Shown here: positions 48 to 10,854 of the stretch, in pieces
Layout of the letters: every line of letters starts with the position of its first letter
Numbering within the stretch: the first letter of the stretch is position 1
UHGV virus genome: UHGV-0113369
From: a virus
DNA length: 10,854 nt
Strand: one strand, 5' to 3'
Position numbers and translations under genes: made by a program
The notes under the pieces: generated by a model
The model's input: the letters and a program-made list of their open reading frames with translations, nothing else
Told to the model about the DNA's origin: nothing
The model's database searches: none

Positions 48-1043
48 TTACGCCAATACGCCAATTGCCAGCGCACGATCGATAAAACGAAATATCAGCT
101 CCAGCTGAGAGCCATACTTCTCTTCAAATGCCACGGTATCCGCATGCAGCTCGTCGTGATGCTTTCTGCACAAAGGCAACACAAAGAGGTCATGCGCTTT
201 TGTACCCATTCCACCCTGACCGTGGCCTATCAGGTGGTGGGGATCATCAGCAGGCTTTCCACAACATGCACACGGCTGTGTCTTAACCCAGCGCGTGTAC
301 TTTTCATTAACCCAGCGGCGGCGTTTTGGGCGTAACATAAAAGACTCCGGCGACTCCGGATCCACTTTCAGCGCCAGCACCTTTTTCGCCTTATCCTGGA
401 TGATGCTGGTGGCAGGAACCGAAGGCACAAGGTCACTTTCCCGGGTGACAGACGGCACAACAGGCTTCGGTAATCTCAGTGCCTTACGGGCTGCACTTTC
501 CGGTAAGGCATCCGCCAGGTCATTACGAATCAGCCACCAGCACAGTTCCGGCATTGTCACGGCATGGTTATCATCAAAACCGAGATCCAGACGGACTACA
601 GACAACACCCAGCGGGCACAGTTATCCGTTGCCATTGATTCCAGCCGTTCCGTGAACTGATCGCGCAGCTGGTTATCGCAGTGCCAGCACAGACGGATCG
701 CGCCCGGCGCGTGTCGCATTGTGGTCATGTTCTCGCTGTGCCAGTCGGAATGAGGCCACTGGCAGCCTTTTTCACGAAGTAACCAGCTTTCAAGACATTC
801 CACGCCACCAGCACGACGGATCACTGCCTCATTGCGGAACACGGCCCTAACGGCAGGATCATCCGCCAGCGGTTGTGATGCCGCCGGAACGGCACCACTG
901 GCGAAAGATGAATAACGTTCCGGCTCAGGCTCCAGCAGGACACGCCCCTGCATAAACAGGGGCATCAGCTCTGAACCTGGTCTGAACAATACAATCCCCA
1001 TACGCGGGGCTATTTCAGGGGTCAGTAGTGCTCTCACGGTCAC
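48..1043 (-). CDS. DUF968-family prophage protein (YdfU-like) with C-terminal Cys/His cluster
   Basis: 331-aa ORF. C-terminal CACCGKP...HHLIGHGQGG...CRKHHDELH cluster resembles an HNH-like zinc-binding motif. Start is GTG at 1043, immediately after the upstream gene's TGA (1047-1045). Family assignment is from memory of DUF968 prophage proteins. Confidence 0.55.
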   Translation of the reverse strand: MTVRALLTPEIAPRMGIVLFRPGSELMPLFMQGRVLLEPEPERYSSFASGAVPAASQPLADDPAVRAVFRNEAVIRRAGGVECLESWLLREKGCQWPHSDWHSENMTTMRHAPGAIRLCWHCDNQLRDQFTERLESMATDNCARWVLSVVRLDLGFDDNHAVTMPELCWWLIRNDLADALPESAARKALRLPKPVVPSVTRESDLVPSVPATSIIQDKAKKVLALKVDPESPESFMLRPKRRRWVNEKYTRWVKTQPCACCGKPADDPHHLIGHGQGGMGTKAHDLFVLPLCRKHHDELHADTVAFEEKYGSQLELIFRFIDRALAIGVLA

Positions 1044-1044
1044 C

Positions 1045-1854
1045 TCAATGAACGGTATCGAGCAGCTTTAACAGCTCAGGGAATCGGGATTCGAAGAAAT
1101 GCGGCTGCGTCTCACGCGGATTTGCGGGACTGGTGATGTTCTTGCCGAACATGCAGCCTTTCGCCGTCAGCGACCAGAATTTTTTGATGTTGTTAATCCC
1201 GGTACGGCTGTATCGTTCGCGCTGCTCGACGATCCCCAGCTTCACCATCTGGTGATATGCCTGATTAGCCGTCAGGCGGATACCATACTGCTTCAGCAGT
1301 GCACTCAGCGACAGCGTCGGGCGGCTTGAGCCATCAGGCGCGTCAGCAGGTGCATCAATGGCATAGCGCGGTGCCAGATTCGGTAAGCCAACAGCCTCCT
1401 GGAGTTTCTGACAGGCCCCAAGCACAGATGAGTTAGACAGATTTAACTCCCGGCGCATAAAGTCCAGCAGAATCACGCCAGCCTGCATCTTGTCAGCAGC
1501 CTGTCCGGATAATTTTTCCGGTGCGCTGGTTACCATATCGAAAGTACGGATCACCTTCAGATGGAATGACGGGCTGATCCACATTGCATAGGCATACACC
1601 AGTTCCTTGCAGACATACGTTCCCCGTTCATTTCCCCCATGAATCACACTCACCGGGTCAACACCCAAATTCTGGGTGTTGGTTAATTCATGAACAAGCT
1701 CAACAGTTTGTTGGCTGGAAAGAAACTTTCCTGGCTCCTTGGTTCTGGCATTTGCACCAGATGCTACTGCTGCGCGATGCAGATCGTTCAGGCTGTAACG
1801 CCCATAAGCATCACGACGAACTTCAATACCATCAATGACCATCAGATTATTCAT
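1045..1854 (-). CDS. KilA-N domain protein (antirepressor/Roi-like DNA-binding protein)
   Basis: 269-aa ORF. N-terminus MNNLMVIDGIEVRRDAYGRYSLNDLHRAAVASG is typical of KilA-N domains. Strong RBS AAGAGGAGAAA upstream of ATG at 1854. Confidence 0.6.
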   Translation of the reverse strand: MNNLMVIDGIEVRRDAYGRYSLNDLHRAAVASGANARTKEPGKFLSSQQTVELVHELTNTQNLGVDPVSVIHGGNERGTYVCKELVYAYAMWISPSFHLKVIRTFDMVTSAPEKLSGQAADKMQAGVILLDFMRRELNLSNSSVLGACQKLQEAVGLPNLAPRYAIDAPADAPDGSSRPTLSLSALLKQYGIRLTANQAYHQMVKLGIVEQRERYSRTGINNIKKFWSLTAKGCMFGKNITSPANPRETQPHFFESRFPELLKLLDTVH

Positions 1855-1873: not shown

Positions 1874-2263
1874 TCAGGCGGCTGCACCCGCCGTTTTCTC
1901 GTACTTACTGATAGTGATTTCGACCTTCCCTTCCGGGATAACCGGCCCCCACTCCACCAGCATTCTTTTCACCTGGCTGTCGTCCACCCACACACCCGCG
2001 TGGGTCAGGGCGTCAAACAGCGCCTTGTTATAGTTGTCCAGATCGCGGATCCGGTTATCCGGAGGAAACAACACGATCTCCACTGAAGCTGGTGCCGACG
2101 TTGGTTTCGGCAGACGACGTAACTGCTCAATGATGGCTGCACACGCTGCGCTCTGGAATTTTCGCCCCGCCGCGCTTATCAGGCTCTTACCTGCAAGCGC
2201 CCCTTTGTTGGGGTGTCGCCAGTACGTGTTCACGCTGGGCGGAAAAGGCAGTATTAGCTTCAT
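1874..2263 (-). CDS. rusA: RusA-family Holliday junction resolvase
   Basis: 129-aa ORF with RusA hallmarks (PPSVNTYW, RDLDNYNKALFDALT, VWVDDSQV), alignable by eye to E. coli RusA (120 aa). ATG at 2263 overlaps the upstream TGA (ATGA). Confidence 0.85.
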   Translation of the reverse strand: MKLILPFPPSVNTYWRHPNKGALAGKSLISAAGRKFQSAACAAIIEQLRRLPKPTSAPASVEIVLFPPDNRIRDLDNYNKALFDALTHAGVWVDDSQVKRMLVEWGPVIPEGKVEITISKYEKTAGAAA

Positions 2264-2586
2264 ACTTTCAGGCCCCTCTCATGTAACCAGTGGGCTGCAC
2301 GCAGCCTGGCGTTTGCCTCACCGGCAAGCAGTGCGCGGATAATCCCGACCGCCTCGCTGTCGTCGTCCTTCACCGCGGTATGAAGCGTGATGCCCCGGGC
2401 CACGCCACGCTTTATCGTGATGACGCCTTTTTTCTCCAGTGCGCGAAGATGCTCCACCGCTGCATTCACTGAACGGTATCCCAGCATGGTTGCCACCTCC
2501 TGATTGGTTGGCGGGAAGCCACGTTCTTTCTGATAAGAAATCAGCATATCCAGCACCTGCTGCTGGCATTGAGTTAACGTCGTCAT
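2260..2586 (-). CDS. LexA N-terminal-like winged-helix DNA-binding protein (no S24 peptidase domain)
   Basis: 108-aa ORF. Residues 1-70 (QQQVLDMLISYQKERGFPPTNQEVATMLGYRSVNAAVEHLRALEKKGVI) closely parallel the LexA DNA-binding domain (RQQEVFDLI...[36 protein letters not shown]). No Ser/Lys peptidase domain. ATGA overlap with the methyltransferase stop. Confidence 0.7.
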   Translation of the reverse strand: MTTLTQCQQQVLDMLISYQKERGFPPTNQEVATMLGYRSVNAAVEHLRALEKKGVITIKRGVARGITLHTAVKDDDSEAVGIIRALLAGEANARLRAAHWLHERGLKV

Positions 2587-3236
2587 GCCGCCATCTCCCT
2601 GACCAGTTTTTCTGCCTGCTGGCGAACCTGCGCCAGAAAGGCCTCACCACATGCCTCAAGTTCATCGCGCCCGATGTAGCTGATTGCCGGTCCCTTCCAG
2701 GTCTTGTCGAAAACAGCAATAGCACCAGCGAAGAAAGCGCCTGTCGGCACCTGCTTCTCATCCTTCGGGATAAACCAGGCAGGCAGTTCAAAACCAATAC
2801 GCCCGCGAATAAAAGCAATATGATCTGCATCTTCCGGCCACCACACTTCGCTGGTGGCAGCTTTGATCAGGAAAACATAGCGCCCGCCTTTATCACGCAT
2901 GGCACTGGCATGCTTCATGATGTAACGCATGCCGGTGATGTATTGCCCCTCATGCTGACTGGCGCGGCTGTATGGGGGATTACCAAAGGCAGCACCTTTA
3001 AGCTCCGCAAGGCGTTCTGACCAGTCATGCGCCAGCGCGTTGTCTTCCGCCGTGTAATACGCAGCACATTTGGCGTTATCACCGTCAGTGAACAGATCCA
3101 GAACAAACGGGCCAAACAGGGTGTTAATTCCCCAGAAAATGTTGTCCGGCGTGCGCCACTGATCGCCCACTTCCTTCAGTTCATGGGCTGGTTTGTTCCG
3201 CAGTTCCGCCAGCGCCTGGCAATATTTATTACTCAT
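2583..3236 (-). CDS. Phage N6-adenine DNA methyltransferase (Dam-like, NPPY motif)
   Basis: GNPPYSR catalytic motif and overall resemblance to phage Dam-type methyltransferases. Start chosen as the ATG at 3236-3234, which overlaps the upstream TAA (TAATG). An in-frame upstream start at 3269 is possible (ORF track 2583..3269). Confidence 0.8.
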   Translation of the reverse strand: MSNKYCQALAELRNKPAHELKEVGDQWRTPDNIFWGINTLFGPFVLDLFTDGDNAKCAAYYTAEDNALAHDWSERLAELKGAAFGNPPYSRASQHEGQYITGMRYIMKHASAMRDKGGRYVFLIKAATSEVWWPEDADHIAFIRGRIGFELPAWFIPKDEKQVPTGAFFAGAIAVFDKTWKGPAISYIGRDELEACGEAFLAQVRQQAEKLVREMAA

Positions 3237-3724
3237 TAAGCCCCCACGTAATTCCCTGAGAGATACCACTCTTCACCTGATGCAGCCCGCTTACTGCTTT
3301 TCCGTAAACACCGTTCACGACGCGCCAGAAAATTGTTTCGTTCTGGCTGGGAGTGGCTTTCACGGAATGCCGCCATCCACACCGTTGCAGCACGACGGTA
3401 TAAGCCCCTCGACTCCAGTTCTTCAGCCTGGCGGGTCAGGCACAAAATCACCCGGGGGTCGTTAGTGCCGACATAGAACTTGCGCACAGGTCTGGTTTCA
3501 CGAACTGGTTGTGGTTCCGGCTCCTGCGCTCTCTCAGTCAGGCGCGAGAAATGTCTGCGTGTATCTCCTTCACAACGGTGAGCCACACGCCCACTCTGAC
3601 GTAACTTGCTTGCTGACTGCAGAACGCGCTGCCGTGAGTAACCTGCAAAAGCATCCGCAATGTCTCCGGAAGTACACCCCGGATGGGCTTCAATGAATTT
3701 CTGAACTTCATTCAAAAGACTCAT
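3236..3724 (-). CDS. Small regulator: N-terminal winged-helix domain fused to ANR/PerC-like C-terminal motif
   Basis: 162 aa from ATG 3724 (SD-like AGGGGG 5-6 nt upstream); a GTG at 3730 overlapping the rep stop is an alternative. C-terminal RRAATVWMAAFRESHSQPERNNFLARRERC fits the W..A...ER...R.ERC pattern I associate with ANR/PerC-family regulators. Assignment is from memory and tentative. Confidence 0.4.
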   Translation of the reverse strand: MSLLNEVQKFIEAHPGCTSGDIADAFAGYSRQRVLQSASKLRQSGRVAHRCEGDTRRHFSRLTERAQEPEPQPVRETRPVRKFYVGTNDPRVILCLTRQAEELESRGLYRRAATVWMAAFRESHSQPERNNFLARRERCLRKSSKRAASGEEWYLSGNYVGA

Positions 3725-3726
3725 GA

Positions 3727-4668
3727 TCACCCCCTGAATCCTGCCGGGATCTGGCTGTAGTCCACGTTGTCGTAACTGGATTTGAAGTACGGATCTTCAC
3801 GTTTTTCTGTGTATGTGCTGACGGACGGCGATAAGCGCAGGGAAAGCTCATCCCATTTTTCCCGCAGCTTCGACGGGCTGAGCACGTTACGGCACCAGAA
3901 CGGATCGCGGCTGACGCGGCTGTACATCTCGCAGATTTGTTTGTGAGTACGACCATCCTGCACACACATCAGGCGAATTTCGTTTGCCCAGGCTGTCCAG
4001 TTCGGTTCTTTGGGACGAACCACCTCGCCGTCACATTCGGCAGCCTGCTCGTACAGGGCGATGATTTTTTTCCAGAGCCACTGTGCGCAGGTCAAATCAT
4101 CCTGCGTTCCCCACTGGCGCTTTTTAGGGCTGAATACAACCGCATCAGGATGGCGAGTTAAAAAATCCTGTTCAGCCGTCTGCGTGTCCGGTTGCGAAGC
4201 GTCCGGACGAGAAGGTTTTTTATCTGACGGTTCATGTTTTGATTTTACTGACGGATCCCCGCCAGATTCTGACGGGTGAAAACCCGCTTTTTTGCCAGAT
4301 TTCGACGCATCAAATTTTGACGGGTCAGATTTTGATGCGTCAGATTTTGACGGGTCAGAATCTGACAGTTGAGAAAATGCCGCTGCCTGAAGCTTCGCAA
4401 CGTTAAGCTGATAAACATTCGACGCATTGCGGTTACCCTGGCGACGCGCCTTACGCGTTAACCAGCCTTCTGCTTCCAGCCGTGCGATAGCCGTTCTGAC
4501 GGTACTCATCCCCGCGCCAATCTGACGGGCAATGGTTTCAATTGATGGCCAGCACACACCTTCGTCATTACTGAAATCAGCCAGGCGGGCCATAATTGCC
4601 ACGCTGGATAATTTCATGCCTGACGCAGCGCAACCATCCCATACATAGCCGGTTAATTTAGTGCTCAT
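3727..4668 (-). CDS. Phage replication initiation protein (N-terminal HTH, lambda O-like role) with internal pentapeptide repeats
   Basis: 313-aa ORF. N-terminal 90 aa look like a winged-helix/HTH replication-initiator domain. Central low-complexity repeat DPSKS/DASKS/DPSKF/DASKS is encoded by a 15-bp tandem DNA repeat. RBS GAGG 6 nt upstream of ATG 4668. Confidence 0.7.
   Translation of the reverse strand: MSTKLTGYVWDGCAASGMKLSSVAIMARLADFSNDEGVCWPSIETIARQIGAGMSTVRTAIARLEAEGWLTRKARRQGNRNASNVYQLNVAKLQAAAFSQLSDSDPSKSDASKSDPSKFDASKSGKKAGFHPSESGGDPSVKSKHEPSDKKPSRPDASQPDTQTAEQDFLTRHPDAVVFSPKKRQWGTQDDLTCAQWLWKKIIALYEQAAECDGEVVRPKEPNWTAWANEIRLMCVQDGRTHKQICEMYSRVSRDPFWCRNVLSPSKLREKWDELSLRLSPSVSTYTEKREDPYFKSSYDNVDYSQIPAGFRG
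4220..4368. repeat. Iteron array (candidate origin of replication) inside the initiator gene
   Basis: Four to five contiguous 15-bp units YCAGATTTTGACGGG at 4295-4368, another copy at 4262-4276, and degenerate copies near 4222-4254 (TATCTGACGG, TTTTACTGACGG). This parallels lambda ori iterons lying within gene O. Confidence 0.6.
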
Positions 4669-4677
4669 GACCGACCT

Positions 4678-5016
4678 CTATTTCCCTGAATTTACGACGA
4701 AACTGTTCGAGCGGGCTGAAGCATTCATGCTCATAGCCTTCGCGGAGGTAGATAACCCGTTGTGTTTCCGGTTCCCAACGAATGACTCTGACGGGCACTC
4801 CGTAGTGATCTTTGAACCAGCGGTTAACTTGTCGCAAAGGACTGTCTCCTTCTGCCGGTTGAAATCACCCACAGCCCACTCTGCAAAGCTGTGGGTTACA
4901 ATTTCCCTGTCACCTGGTACATTTACTGCATAGCAATACTCCACCTTCGCTTTTCCACCCGGTACAGGAAGCGCAATCAGTTGCGAGCGACGGTAGTGTG
5001 TTGTTAAACTGTTCAT
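4678..5016 (-). CDS. Hypothetical protein (uncertain coding status)
   Basis: 112-aa ORF whose ATG (5016-5014) overlaps the CII-like stop (ATGA). No recognisable motif. It contains an 8-bp GC-rich hairpin (4868-4895) and is overlapped by an antisense plus-strand ORF. Confidence 0.3.
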
Positions 5017-5597
5017 GCGTTAGTTTCTCCACAACCAGAAGCAATCGACGCCACGACGCCCGGAGCTGCACACTCGCGGGCGTTACTCTTTTCCGGCGCA
5101 CAAAAAACACGAAATAACAGTGTTAAATGCTCCTGCCACTTCGCCATTACTTGGTAGCTGTTCTCTTCGATTTGCTCACGCTCAGCTTGGTCAATAACTC
5201 CATCAGCAGTTGCCTTGCGTAAGTACTGGGAATGCTTGCCAATCCATTCTATTGACTCCATCAGCCGCTGATTAATGTCACCATTGTCAATGTCATCAAT
5301 GACCACCAGCGGCACAAACACCCCATTACTACGACGGGCTATTGCATCCGTTACATGCCTGGTACCACTGGCATCCTGTAAAACCATGGCCCACTCAAGT
5401 GGAAAAATTTGATCCCCACCGCTACGCAGTCTGTTATGCAATTGATCTTTCGCTGGGGTGATATCATCAGATTTATACAAACCAAGAATTTCCGCTGCTT
5501 CCTCATAGCCATGAGGTAAATCAGCAATCGTTCTTCGTATTGCTGCCACCAGCCATGCTGGTTGCTTATCAACTTTCCATTCAGGTTCTTTACCCAC
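5013..5597 (-). CDS. CII-like lysogeny regulator (CP76/YdaT-type), GTG start
   Basis: 194-aa ORF immediately downstream of the cro-like gene, the position of lambda cII. GTG start at 5597 with GAGG 7 nt upstream. Family assignment is by recollection of Phage_CP76-type proteins and is tentative. Confidence 0.45.
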
Positions 5598-5633: not shown

Positions 5634-5834
5634 TTATCCATTAGATTTTTCATAAAGCTCAGGTTTAAATGGCAACCGTCCGCAAGTTCTATATGCAGCC
5701 TCTGCTGCACGTCCTTTTGGAATTAACTGGCCAGGACGGTTTCGCCACTGATAAACGGCTTCAGTTGTTATGCCGAAAAAAGCAGCAACTTTCTCAATGC
5801 TGCCGAAGTAGCTTTCGATATCGTCAGTCGTCAT
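5634..5834 (-). CDS. cro: Cro-like repressor
   Basis: 66-aa basic protein divergent from the CI gene. Strong RBS GGAGG 4 nt before ATG 5834. Some resemblance to lambda Cro in the central/C-terminal region (AVYQW...GRAAEAAYRTCG). Confidence 0.6.
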   Translation of the reverse strand: MTTDDIESYFGSIEKVAAFFGITTEAVYQWRNRPGQLIPKGRAAEAAYRTCGRLPFKPELYEKSNG

Positions 5835-5931
5835 ATGCCCTCCAAACTAAGTTTTATTAGATGTTAATTATCAATCTATCTTAGGTCAATAAAAACTAAG
5901 ATTACTTAGTAATTAAAGAAATGGTGCTCCT
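5835..5931. promoter_or_regulatory. Immunity-region OR: divergent pR/pRM promoters with AACTAAG-type operator palindromes
   Basis: AT-rich 97-bp spacer between divergent cro-like and cI genes. 11-bp palindrome AAACTAAGTTT at 5844-5854 and 16-bp palindrome ACTAAGATTACTTAGT at 5895-5910. Candidate pR on the minus strand: -35 TTGACC (5889-5884), 17-bp spacer, -10 TAACAT (5866-5861). Confidence 0.55.
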
Positions 5932-6558
5932 ATGGAAACGGTTGGTCAGCGTATAAAAGCTCTGAGAAGAGTTACCAGAACGTCCCAGAAAGAATTGGGT
6001 AAATTTTGTGGAGTAAGTGACGTTGCTGTGGGGTACTGGGAGAAAGACATCAATGTCCCTGGTGGGGAAGCACTTTCAAAATTAGCGAAGTTCTTCAATA
6101 CGTCAATAGATTACATTCTTTATGGTGCGGAGTTTGAAGGCAAACTCGTCACAAACATGCGCAGAGTTCCTGTAATCTCGTGGGTTCAGGCTGGGCAGTT
6201 TACTGAGTGCAGGACAGCAGAAGTGTTTAGTGAAGTAGACAAGTGGGTAGATACATCATTAAAGATTGGTGATAACTCATTTGCATTGGAGGTTAAAGGC
6301 GACTCCATGACTAACCCTAACGGCCTCCCAACAATACCAGAAGGCGCAACAGTGATTGTAGATCCTGATGCAGAGCCCCGGCATGGAAAAATAGTCATCG
6401 CTAGACTTGATGGAACAAACGAAGCCACAGTAAAAAAATTAGTTATCGATGGCCCTCAAAAGTTTTTAGTGCCATTAAATCCCCGGTACCCCAACATCCC
6501 GATCAATGGTAATTGCCTCATCATTGGTGTAGTCAAAGGAGTTCAATACGAACTCTAG
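5932..6558 (+). CDS. cI: CI-type prophage repressor (HTH_XRE N-terminal domain + S24 LexA-like autopeptidase domain)
   Basis: 208-aa ORF. N-terminal HTH (QKELGKFCGVSDVAVGYWEKD). C-terminal S24 peptidase motifs (EVKGDSMTNP with catalytic Ser; KKL with catalytic Lys). Divergent from the cro-like gene. Weak or absent SD, consistent with a near-leaderless pRM transcript as in lambda. Confidence 0.9.
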   Translation: METVGQRIKALRRVTRTSQKELGKFCGVSDVAVGYWEKDINVPGGEALSKLAKFFNTSIDYILYGAEFEGKLVTNMRRVPVISWVQAGQFTECRTAEVFSEVDKWVDTSLKIGDNSFALEVKGDSMTNPNGLPTIPEGATVIVDPDAEPRHGKIVIARLDGTNEATVKKLVIDGPQKFLVPLNPRYPNIPINGNCLIIGVVKGVQYEL

Positions 6559-6640: not shown

Positions 6641-6742
6641 TTATATCAAAGATAACGAACAGGTAGGACGCCCACGAAGTAGCCGCCGGTGGCGTATGAA
6701 TGACCGGATGATTCGTTAAATACTATGTGTAAGAGAGCGCAA

Positions 6743-6946
6743 ATGAACCGTTATTTCACATGCTCGTTTTGTGGCGCAAACGAGCTGCAGGCAAAAAAAA
6801 TCATCGCCAAAGGCGGAAAAGATGAAGTTGCTATCTGCTCTGAGTGCGTAGTCTTGTGTGTCGGGGCATTAATCGATATCAGCACAACTATTCAGTTCAC
6901 ACCAAATGAGAATGCGCCTTTAGATGCGCGGAAATCTGGAGGTTAA
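6743..6946 (+). CDS. Free-standing ClpX-type C4 zinc-finger (ClpX N-terminal ZBD-like) small protein
   Basis: 67 aa from ATG 6743 (RBS AAGAGAG 5 nt upstream). CSFCG...KIIAKGG...ICSECVVLC aligns by eye with the E. coli ClpX N-terminal zinc-binding domain ([30 protein letters not shown]). No AAA+ ATPase domain follows. Confidence 0.6.
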   Translation: MNRYFTCSFCGANELQAKKIIAKGGKDEVAICSECVVLCVGALIDISTTIQFTPNENAPLDARKSGG

Positions 6947-9747: not shown

Positions 9748-10337
9748 ATGTTTTCGAAATGGAAGGGTTTCTTCGCGGGAAATGTGTACCGCGAGATCTG
9801 AAAGTGAACGAAACAAACGCTGAATATCTGGTGCGTAAATTTGCTGAAGCGGAGGCCAAGATTTCGGCTCTGTACGAAGACCACCAGAAAGCGATTGAGT
9901 CAATTAAGCAGGCTGATGCAGCTGTTAAGTTGGCACACGAGAAGTTTTCAGCACTGGCAGCGGAGAATGCTGGGCTGAATAAATTTATCGCACAGAGTTG
10001 CTACGTGTTTGATGGCGAGCAGGATGAAATATCTGATGCGTATATCTGCGCAACAGATGGAGGGATGCCGCAAACACCAGCCACCGATGCTTTCCTGGCT
10101 GAAGTGAAGACTGAAGCACGCAAGGAGGGCGCTTACTTTGTGGCGAACAGAATGCTGGCTGCCTGGGAAGCTGGTTTTATTGATGATACTGCGAAGAACG
10201 CCGCGGATATTGCCAGGATGATTATTACCTCTACTGAGTTTATGGCTAATGCGCCGGAAGGCGATTTTGACCGCTCATTCTCTGATGGCGTTCTAGAAGA
10301 TATCGCCGACCAGCTTCGCAAAGGAGGCAACCAGTGA
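9738..10337 (+). CDS. Hypothetical protein (199 aa; yfdS-like position)
   Basis: ORF whose start overlaps the yfdR-like stop (ATG 9738; GGAG 9 nt upstream). N-terminal region looks coiled-coil-like. No motif recognised. Confidence 0.45.
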   Translation: MRMNVFEMEGFLRGKCVPRDLKVNETNAEYLVRKFAEAEAKISALYEDHQKAIESIKQADAAVKLAHEKFSALAAENAGLNKFIAQSCYVFDGEQDEISDAYICATDGGMPQTPATDAFLAEVKTEARKEGAYFVANRMLAAWEAGFIDDTAKNAADIARMIITSTEFMANAPEGDFDRSFSDGVLEDIADQLRKGGNQ

Positions 10338-10634: not shown

Positions 10635-10854
10635 ATGACAAAAATTAACTATCAGGCACTGCGTGCTAAGGCAGAAAAAGCAACGTGTGGTGAGTGGTCG
10701 CTCGAATATGGAGAGAGCCGATTTGATGGTGATGATGCGCTAATTCATCGCGAGGCTGCTGGATATATTCCCATTTGCAGAATTGAAGGAGCGCATCCTG
10801 AAAGCGGTTTCGATGAAGATTTCCAAATGGAACAGCAGGCCAATGCTGAATTCA
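10635..10854 (+). CDS. Hypothetical protein, 5' fragment running off the window (possibly Ead/Ea22-like)
   Basis: ATG 10635 directly after the upstream stop. N-terminus MTKINYQALRAKAEKATCGEW resembles my recollection of Ea22-like early-left proteins. No stop within the window. Confidence 0.35.
   Translation, partial: MTKINYQALRAKAEKATCGEWSLEYGESRFDGDDALIHREAAGYIPICRIEGAHPESGFDEDFQMEQQANAEF

Follow-up and report, generated by a model that had tools for sequence, protein, structure and literature searches.

The window, that is, the whole 10,854-nucleotide (nt) stretch of virus genome UHGV-0113369 that was analysed, carried on its minus strand at 2260..2586 a gene for a LexA-like protein. The gene probably encoded a functional small phage regulator, a LexA-derived winged helix-turn-helix whose S24 domain had been swapped for a two-helix hairpin. 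What was observed was the fold, the missing cleavage machinery, selection on the gene, its position in the operon, operons headed by SOS boxes in relatives, and co-occurrence of SOS boxes with the gene. These point tentatively, at less than an even chance, to a surrogate for LexA that acts on LexA-type dyads and withstands RecA.

Protein and Predicted Fold

The LexA-like gene started with ATG, with a GGAG Shine-Dalgarno sequence 8-9 nt 5' of the start, and its translated product (MTTLTQCQQQVLDMLISYQKERGFPPTNQEVATMLGYRSVNAAVEHLRALEKKGVITIKRGVARGITLHTAVKDDDSEAVGIIRALLAGEANARLRAAHWLHERGLKV; 108 amino acids) was a full-length member of PHROG 362 ("transcriptional repressor"; residues 1-108 against profile positions 1-106 of 106; E 4.2e-59). 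PHROG 3502 was a secondary match, through the DNA-binding domain (E 4.4e-15). The Pfam family LexA_DNA_bind (PF01726) matched residues 1-65 at profile positions 1-65 of 65 (E 2.9e-19; 69 bits against a cutoff of 23.7). The best Protein Data Bank match by phmmer was the N-terminal domain of E. coli LexA (1lea; residues 2-70; E 6e-16), and identity to residues 1-70 of E. coli LexA was about 51-52%. The match to TIGR00498, the NCBIfam LexA equivalog, fell below cutoff (70.7 against 110.95 bits) and covered model positions 1-91 of 203 only. No S24 domain (PF00717) was found in the protein with Pfam and the Ser/Lys catalytic dyad was not present in it; the chain stopped at residue 108, and the next gene was rusA. 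The preliminary description of this DNA had likened the first 70 or so residues to LexA and had noted that no S24 domain followed, and both statements held.

In the AlphaFold2 model (overall predicted local distance difference test score, pLDDT, 77), the N-terminal domain had three helices and a beta hairpin. This winged helix-turn-helix (residues 1-68; 2383..2586, minus strand) consisted of helices 6-22, 28-35 and 40-52 and a beta hairpin at 56-59 and 65-68 (AlphaFold2, Foldseek), and the recognition helix VNAAVEHLRALEK (residues 40-52; 2431..2469, minus strand) was located by HMMER alignment to LexA. The expected likeness to the LexA DNA-binding domain was borne out by the model, which superposed on DNA-bound LexA (3jso) with a root-mean-square deviation of 1.2 A over 66 residues at 52% identity (Foldseek, 1lea and 3jso: 1.2-1.5 A, 66-68 residues, 51-52% identity).

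The linker (residues 69-75) was modelled with low confidence. The C-terminal two-helix hairpin (residues 74-103; 2278..2367, minus strand; helices 74-87 and 93-103; pLDDT 84-86) stood in the place of the LexA S24 domain. The hairpin would take over the dimerisation role of the LexA C-terminal domain, because an amphipathic hairpin of 30 residues cannot bury a hydrophobic core on its own. The tail pair A88-G89 (LLAGE) aligned by HMMER with the hinge and cleavage loop of LexA (VAAGE), and an alignment reaching that far suggests descent from a full-length lexA. Residue 89 was K or N in close relatives and the Ala-Gly motif was gone in distant ones, so cleavage was not a selected feature; trans-cleavage at A88-G89 by CI or LexA was considered and dropped for the same reason. 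With no S24 domain, no Ser/Lys dyad and no conserved Ala88-Gly89, the anatomy of the protein supports the claimed paralogue incapable of autocleavage.

Selection and Distribution

The LexA-like gene was present in 2233 of 5426 complete E. coli genomes (95-100% identity), and also in phages SfV (orf42), SfII, mEp460, 1720a-02 and phiSTEC1575 and in phages for Shiga toxins (Stx) 2a and 2c (Stx2a/Stx2c phages). Annotations there read LexA-like, LexA family regulator or, wrongly, "SOS-response repressor and protease". The 81 copies compared fell into 45 alleles; of the 52 sites that varied, 37 were third codon positions. Among the alleles, 51 codon variants were synonymous and 11 non-synonymous, internal stops were absent, and residues 21-54 had no amino-acid change. 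This is a real gene, and purifying selection acts on it.

When 1.84 billion representative proteins were searched exhaustively, full-length relatives turned up at 40-52% identity, in prophages of Cronobacter, Enterobacter, Kosakonia, Cedecea, Klebsiella and Salmonella. Even where identity had fallen to 40%, proteins from Escherichia, Shigella, Citrobacter, Salmonella, Cronobacter, Enterobacter, Kosakonia, Cedecea and Klebsiella kept the length and the tail, and A97 and L101 were invariant. The diverged relatives P0172, P0189 and P0137 matched PHROG 362 over its full length, tail included.

Two sets of longer proteins were also seen. Those of 140-350 amino acids (P0131, P0133, P0148, P0151, P0152, P0156, P0160, P0164 and others) matched the query in two separate stretches; they have two LexA DNA-binding domains in tandem and are possibly covalent pseudo-dimers. 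Those of 168-185 amino acids (P0024, P0092, P0098, P0120) had both Dam (PF05869) and LexA_DNA_bind matches, and look like frameshift or deletion fusions, in some genomes, across the ATGA junction between the two genes.

Phage proteins built solely from LexA's DNA-binding domain were numerous and the present family was already catalogued, so that as an annotation the finding was known. Its database label ("LexA family transcriptional regulator/repressor") derives at present from homology only, and the name of PHROG 362 is an annotation. What is added here is the conserved C-terminal hairpin, the fixed position of the gene, upstream of rusA, DUF968 and Q, the operons of relatives with SOS boxes at their head, and the co-occurrence with SOS boxes.

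DNA-Contact Residues

Contacts of LexA with DNA listed in PMC13416735, which cites Knegtel 1995, are S39, N41, A42, E44 and E45. At these listed positions the LexA-like protein had S39, N41, A42, V44 and E45, so that the expectation of conserved contacts stood for four of the five residues and failed for E44. K53 and R64-G65 were also kept from LexA, and R28 was changed to N and P40 to V. Within the family, S39, K53 and R64-G65-I66 were invariant and N41 nearly invariant. The helix-3 region read RSVNAAVEHLR in the window protein, SSPNAAAEHLK in P0137, SSSNAVLLHLR in P0172 and RSQNTVFIHLR in P0189.

From these residues, DNA binding was very likely retained. A specificity identical to that of LexA is plausible in the E. 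coli clade and cannot hold for the whole family. For the window protein, binding of SOS boxes is plausible.

Operons and SOS Boxes in Diverged Relatives

Among 10 diverged lineages, rusA lay at most one gene downstream of the LexA-like gene in 9, usually with overlapping stop and start, and DUF968 and Q followed wherever the contig reached far enough. The 5' neighbour varied: it was a methyltransferase (Dam or an unrelated C5 or D12 enzyme) in some lineages and a replication gene or small open reading frame (ORF) in others. The conserved block ran from the LexA-like gene through rusA and, where present, an Ant or KilA-N gene to DUF968 and Q. The methyltransferase, which the preliminary description had named beside rusA as a neighbour, was an optional insert; the conserved neighbours were rusA, DUF968 and Q.

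SOS boxes were scored with a matrix made from E. coli boxes. Scores of at least 20 bits occurred 0.0012 times per 10 kb in shuffled sequence, and the validated Gifsy-2 dinI box (PMC3121763) scored 24.3 bits. One branch carries an N-terminal extension (P0137, P0172, P0189, P0228); in all four of its lineages, which are diverged to about 40% identity, SOS boxes of 21-27 bits headed the operon. The box headed the operon of the LexA-like gene in L097 (TACTGTTTATATATACAGTG; 26.4 bits) and in L004 (ACCTGTACATTCATACAGTA; 21.0 bits), lay before dinI in L099 (TACTGTTTATTTATACAGTA; 27.0 bits), and was one of a tandem pair at the head of the operon in L102 (26.3 bits for the stronger). In all four, dinI or a different small gene came next after the box, followed by the gene of a PHROG 1813 protein and, third, the LexA-like gene. 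The immunity repressor of L004 had no S24 domain, like the Gifsy repressors.

Two further features were noted in these loci. In L102 (2242-2597), the tandem boxes were followed by a 95-amino acid ORF with a match to RecA_C, the Pfam RecA C-terminal domain; it stands in the place of dinI in L099 and Gifsy, and so may be another phage RecA modulator. In L004, an Enterobacter prophage, a second SOS box (TACTGTTTTTATATACAGTG; 10164-10183; 24.9 bits) lay between the lysozyme gene and a minus-strand ORF of 202 amino acids, and perhaps marks a moron under LexA control.

SOS Boxes in E. coli Prophages

The test set held 80 E. coli viral contigs with a near-identical LexA-like gene (±5 kb; 751 kb in total). 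The control set held 80 equally mosaic loci around a DLP12-type rusA (L105-L184; 691 kb), all without the LexA-like gene. Boxes of at least 18 bits numbered 56 (in 46 loci) across the gene-bearing loci and 0 across the control loci. With the spacer required to be AT-rich, perfect CTGT-N8-ACAG sites numbered 55 and 0, respectively. This co-occurrence of SOS boxes with the LexA-like gene is suggestive, not rigorous.

The first box site was the spacer between rusA and the KilA-N gene in 13 loci (TACTGTATTTATGAACAGTG; L019 5765-5784; +764 from the start of the LexA-like gene). This spacer was about 160 nt long in the 13 boxed loci and 19 nt long and box-free in the window (about 1855-1873). In the boxed loci the KilA-N gene is likely, from this arrangement, a LexA-controlled gene of antirepressor type. 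The second site was a near-consensus box (TACTGTTTTTAYATACAGTA; L019 546-565) in 21 loci, within the coding sequence of a cI allele at the linker between its helix-turn-helix (HTH) and S24 domains. The allele encoded a CI-type repressor of 230 amino acids, of another immunity type than the CI of the window. The third site was a perfect box (TACTGTAAAAATAAACAGTG) at codons 3-9 of an N6_N4 methylase gene of the late region in about 20 loci (L008 22133-22152, ON470603.1; L097 7739-7758). The methylase gene lay just 3' of Q, past the left edge of the window, and was absent from the closest colinear prophage. Its box was common to an E. coli phage and the Salmonella prophage L097, but the flanks were also 90% identical, so its conservation gave no independent support.

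A fourth recurrent perfect CTGT-N8-ACAG (GGCTGTAAGTAACCACAGAG; 27 loci) lay within a 381-amino acid ORF 5' of the gene, had a spacer that was not AT-rich, and was taken as chance. Perfect CTGT-N8-ACAG sites of any spacer numbered 2 in the 691 kb of the control loci, against about 10 expected in random equiprobable sequence; this scarcity could be avoidance or an effect of composition.

Genes of the Window

The window belongs to a lambdoid prophage, and the LexA-like gene to its early lytic operon. The source genome was absent from the set of complete E. coli genomes, in which the best match covered 86% at 97% identity. Minus-strand genes followed one another from cro through DUF968 without intergenic gaps. 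Upstream of the operon a promoter scan found a single promoter-like site (5861-5889, minus strand), a putative PR. Then came, all on the minus strand, cro (5634-5834; P22_Cro Pfam match), a CII-like gene (5013-5597), an O-like replication gene (3727-4668), a PerC-like (yfdN) gene (3236-3724) directly 5' of Dam, and the gene of the Dam-type N6-adenine methyltransferase (2583..3236; PF05869, E 1.2e-45). PerC/Pch homologues are prophage-encoded activators of virulence genes of the locus of enterocyte effacement in enteropathogenic and enterohaemorrhagic E. coli. The LexA-like gene was followed, also on the minus strand, by the Holliday-junction resolvase gene rusA (1874..2263; PF05866), a KilA-N domain gene (1045..1854; PF04383) with no SOS box in the window, and a DUF968/HNH-like gene (48..1043; PF06147, E 2.8e-81), the last member of the conserved block before Q. 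The antiterminator gene Q itself lay outside the window edge; both the near-identical phage ON470603.1 and the closest colinear prophage (NZ_CP128255.1) had it after DUF968.

The ORF list gave Dam a GTG start at 3269 (2583-3269; 228 amino acids) and annotated related phages an ATG start at 3236 (217 amino acids). The ATG was adopted from ON470603.1 (99.8% identical); it overlaps the stop of the PerC-like gene (TAATG), and the PADLOC model PDLC03263 matched Dam at positions 1-217 of 217. Stop and start overlapped by 4 nt (ATGA) between Dam and the LexA-like gene (2583-2586) and between the LexA-like gene and rusA (2260-2263). Both overlaps were real, as the preliminary description of a translationally coupled gene required, but overlaps were generic along the whole operon and set these three genes apart in no way. 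PADLOC assigned neither the LexA-like gene nor its neighbours to a defence system beyond generic methyltransferase models, and an Rfam scan of the window gave no match.

On the plus strand, a CI-type immunity repressor gene (5932..6558) had HTH_3 (PF01381) and Peptidase_S24 (PF00717; E 1.6e-27) matches. By its domains, this CI is RecA-cleavable and would set the timing of the LexA-like gene, which we infer to be off in the lysogen and transcribed from PR after RecA-stimulated cleavage of CI. At 167 nt 3' of cI, on the same strand, lay a 73-amino acid ORF (6725-6946) that matched only the ClpX C4-type zinc finger (PF06689; E 1.2e-10), and RefSeq names its counterpart in a related prophage "ClpX C4-type zinc finger protein". 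LexA fragments and lambda O are among the substrates of the ClpXP protease. The zinc-finger protein might be a decoy of the ClpX N-domain, made together with CI in the lysogen. In S. aureus phages, ClpX clears the N-terminal fragment of CI (PMC10584840).

Interpretation

As a surrogate for LexA, the protein would be silent in the lysogen and produced with the delayed-early lytic genes after CI cleavage, and in the diverged relatives it would come directly from a LexA-repressed promoter. By both routes it would arise just as host LexA is being destroyed, and having no peptidase domain it could not be inactivated by activated RecA (RecA*). It would dimerise through the hairpin, bind dyads of CTGT-like half-sites, and repress LexA-controlled promoters again while the SOS response and lytic growth are under way. 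As candidate targets it would have the antirepressor/KilA-N, dinI-type and methylase modules, whether of its own prophage or of one sharing the cell, and possibly SOS genes of the host. The model is consistent with the binding of DNA by N-terminal fragments of S24 repressors (PMC10584840) and with GIL01, which reshapes LexA control and outcompetes a co-resident prophage (PMC9700832). A broader version of the claim is rather unlikely: that the surrogate, carried by the prophages of about 40% of E. coli genomes and by relatives across the Enterobacteriaceae, re-occupies SOS boxes, curbs the SOS response (mutagenic polymerases, SulA, colicins, toxins), and silences the LexA-controlled antirepressors of rival phages.

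Several points weigh against the surrogate. The LexA-box-like sites looked for in the window amounted to no perfect match, a best score of 13 bits (no box of at least 14 bits, and hence no canonical LexA box heading the operon as in Gifsy), and 5 one-mismatch sites against 3.7 expected, which is chance. L103, the closest colinear prophage, likewise had no SOS box, which means that a box bound by the window copy would have to be somewhere else in the cell. The enrichment among E. coli prophages came from three distinct sites in related mosaic phages, two of them in coding sequence, and may reflect linkage of modules. Position 44 was acidic in no member of the family (V in the window protein), R28 was N, and helix-3 positions 42-45 differed among lineages. 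E45 was L or I in P0172 and P0189, though their operons carried canonical SOS boxes; those boxes are surely sites of host LexA and need not be bound by the paralogue. Half-site spacing could differ without the LexA C-terminal domain. Finally, full-text searches of the literature found no experimental study of an enterobacterial homologue of the PHROG 362 type, and only mentions at the level of annotation, for example as Stx-phage pham 237.

Some of the same observations are what the main rival explanation predicts. Under it, the protein would be a lineage-specific transcription factor resembling gp6 of GIL01, with an operator of its own that is not the SOS box, switching phage genes on or off (for example for the timing of Q and late expression) and leaving the SOS regulon untouched. 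This is a doubtful but real possibility. GIL01 gp6 is a precedent, a LexA homologue cut short, which recognises a distinct site and switches on the late promoter P3 (PMC6182141); a position 44 that is never acidic and lineage-variable positions 42-45 are as diversified specificity predicts; the window and L103 had no SOS box; and the place just 5' of rusA, DUF968 and Q was constant in diverged phages. Yet no candidate operator was found: the sole intergenic CTG-N10-CAG in the window (10659-10674) was unremarkable, and no candidate recurred among the inverted repeats near Q and in the late region of ON470603.1. The E. coli clade also has four of the five LexA contacts in the list cited above, and the gene is linked to SOS boxes both by operon context and by co-occurrence.

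Synteny suggests two other roles. The protein could be a DNA-binding accessory of the RusA/DUF968 recombination and nuclease module, targeting or modulating junction resolution rather than transcription, given that rusA was at most one gene away in 9 of 10 lineages and DUF968 came next where the contig was long enough. This is quite unlikely: the genes are separable (L099 had the LexA-like gene without rusA, and 80 DLP12-type rusA loci had no LexA-like gene), gene overlaps were an operon-wide rule, and the conserved S39, N41, K53 and R64 are those of a winged helix that reads sequence. Still less probable is a controller of the upstream methyltransferase, comparable to the C proteins of restriction-modification systems. 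The window and 5 of 10 diverged lineages had a methyltransferase directly 5' of the gene, and the upstream enzymes were of several families (Dam PF05869, PF00145, PF00145 with PF02086), but the gene occurred without one in L002, L101, L004, L099 and L102, and in L097 a terminator and an SOS promoter split the two genes. The LexA-like gene is moreover downstream and C genes are usually upstream, and the slot is a common insertion point for methyltransferases.

Inactive heterodimers with host LexA, of which the preliminary description had also spoken, found no support. Similarity of the N-terminal domains is all that speaks for such dominant-negative poisoning, which is highly improbable because the LexA dimer forms through the C-terminal S24 domain (PMC8565304), which the window protein does not have; its tail is helical and of another kind, and the protein would be made while LexA is already being degraded. 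A functionless, decaying remnant of a captured lexA, as the shortness relative to LexA and the first tail helix still aligning with the hinge and cleavage loop (LLAGE against VAAGE) might suggest, is barely credible and is excluded by the selection data, that is, the strong synonymous excess and absence of stops in 45 alleles, besides a length and tail conserved to 40% identity across nine genera.

If the surrogate reading is true, an induced phage would win priority over co-resident phages. If SOS boxes are bound, a prophage gene found very commonly would remodel the SOS response, which drives mutagenesis, persistence, release of toxins and colicins, and induction of Stx and other prophages, and the gene would offer a simple genetic handle on the hierarchy of co-resident prophages. 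If the protein binds its own operator instead, it would be a further timing regulator of phages, a Gram-negative parallel to GIL01 gp6. The SOS-surrogate reading would, if true, be considerably the more interesting.

Comparison with Known Systems

The window protein shared with E. coli LexA the winged helix and, among the contacts listed above and other LexA residues, S39, N41, A42, E45, K53 and R64-G65. It differed in having no S24 domain, no Ser/Lys dyad and no conserved Ala-Gly, and in having a helical hairpin of its own. It is also phage-encoded, would be expressed only on induction, and fell below the TIGR00498 cutoff.

The sole characterised protein of this kind that was found is gp6 of the Bacillus tectivirus GIL01, likewise a phage-encoded LexA DNA-binding domain alone that is made early in the lytic programme (PMC6182141). 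It differs in its 66 amino acids without a tail, its origin from a Gram-positive LexA, its site, which is not a LexA box, and its action as an activator (PMC6182141). BLASTP of gp6 against the window protein gave no alignment, and the best family of gp6 was PHROG 3502, with a weak match to PHROG 362; being in a separate family, gp6 shows that truncation of LexA happened in parallel.

The operons of L099, L097, L004 and L102 resembled the Gifsy dinI-antirepressor-irsA operon (PMC3121763) in their order of terminator, SOS box, dinI or a small SOS-related gene, a small protein, the next gene, and nin/Q, with the LexA-like gene in the position of irsA. The window gene differed, as it had no SOS box ahead and lay within a PR operon whose phage has a cleavable CI. 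Identity of the genes themselves was rejected in both cases: Gifsy-2 irsA (STM1020) encodes a DUF1367 protein that does not resemble the LexA-like protein, and GftA belongs to PHROG 4847 and is unrelated to the small PHROG 1813 protein.

For the proposed mechanism, non-cleavable LexA of lexA3 (Ind-) and the N-terminal domain of S. aureus phage CI (PMC10584840) are the functional analogues, in that a DNA-binding domain stays on its operator while RecA is active. These are mutants or cleavage products of full-length repressors, whereas the window gene is dedicated and selected and has a C-terminal element of its own. GIL01 gp7 has no homology to LexA and acts by binding host LexA (PMC9700832), but its effect is the one proposed here for the LexA-like protein: LexA-controlled promoters are kept shut after DNA damage, and a co-resident prophage is held back (PMC9700832).

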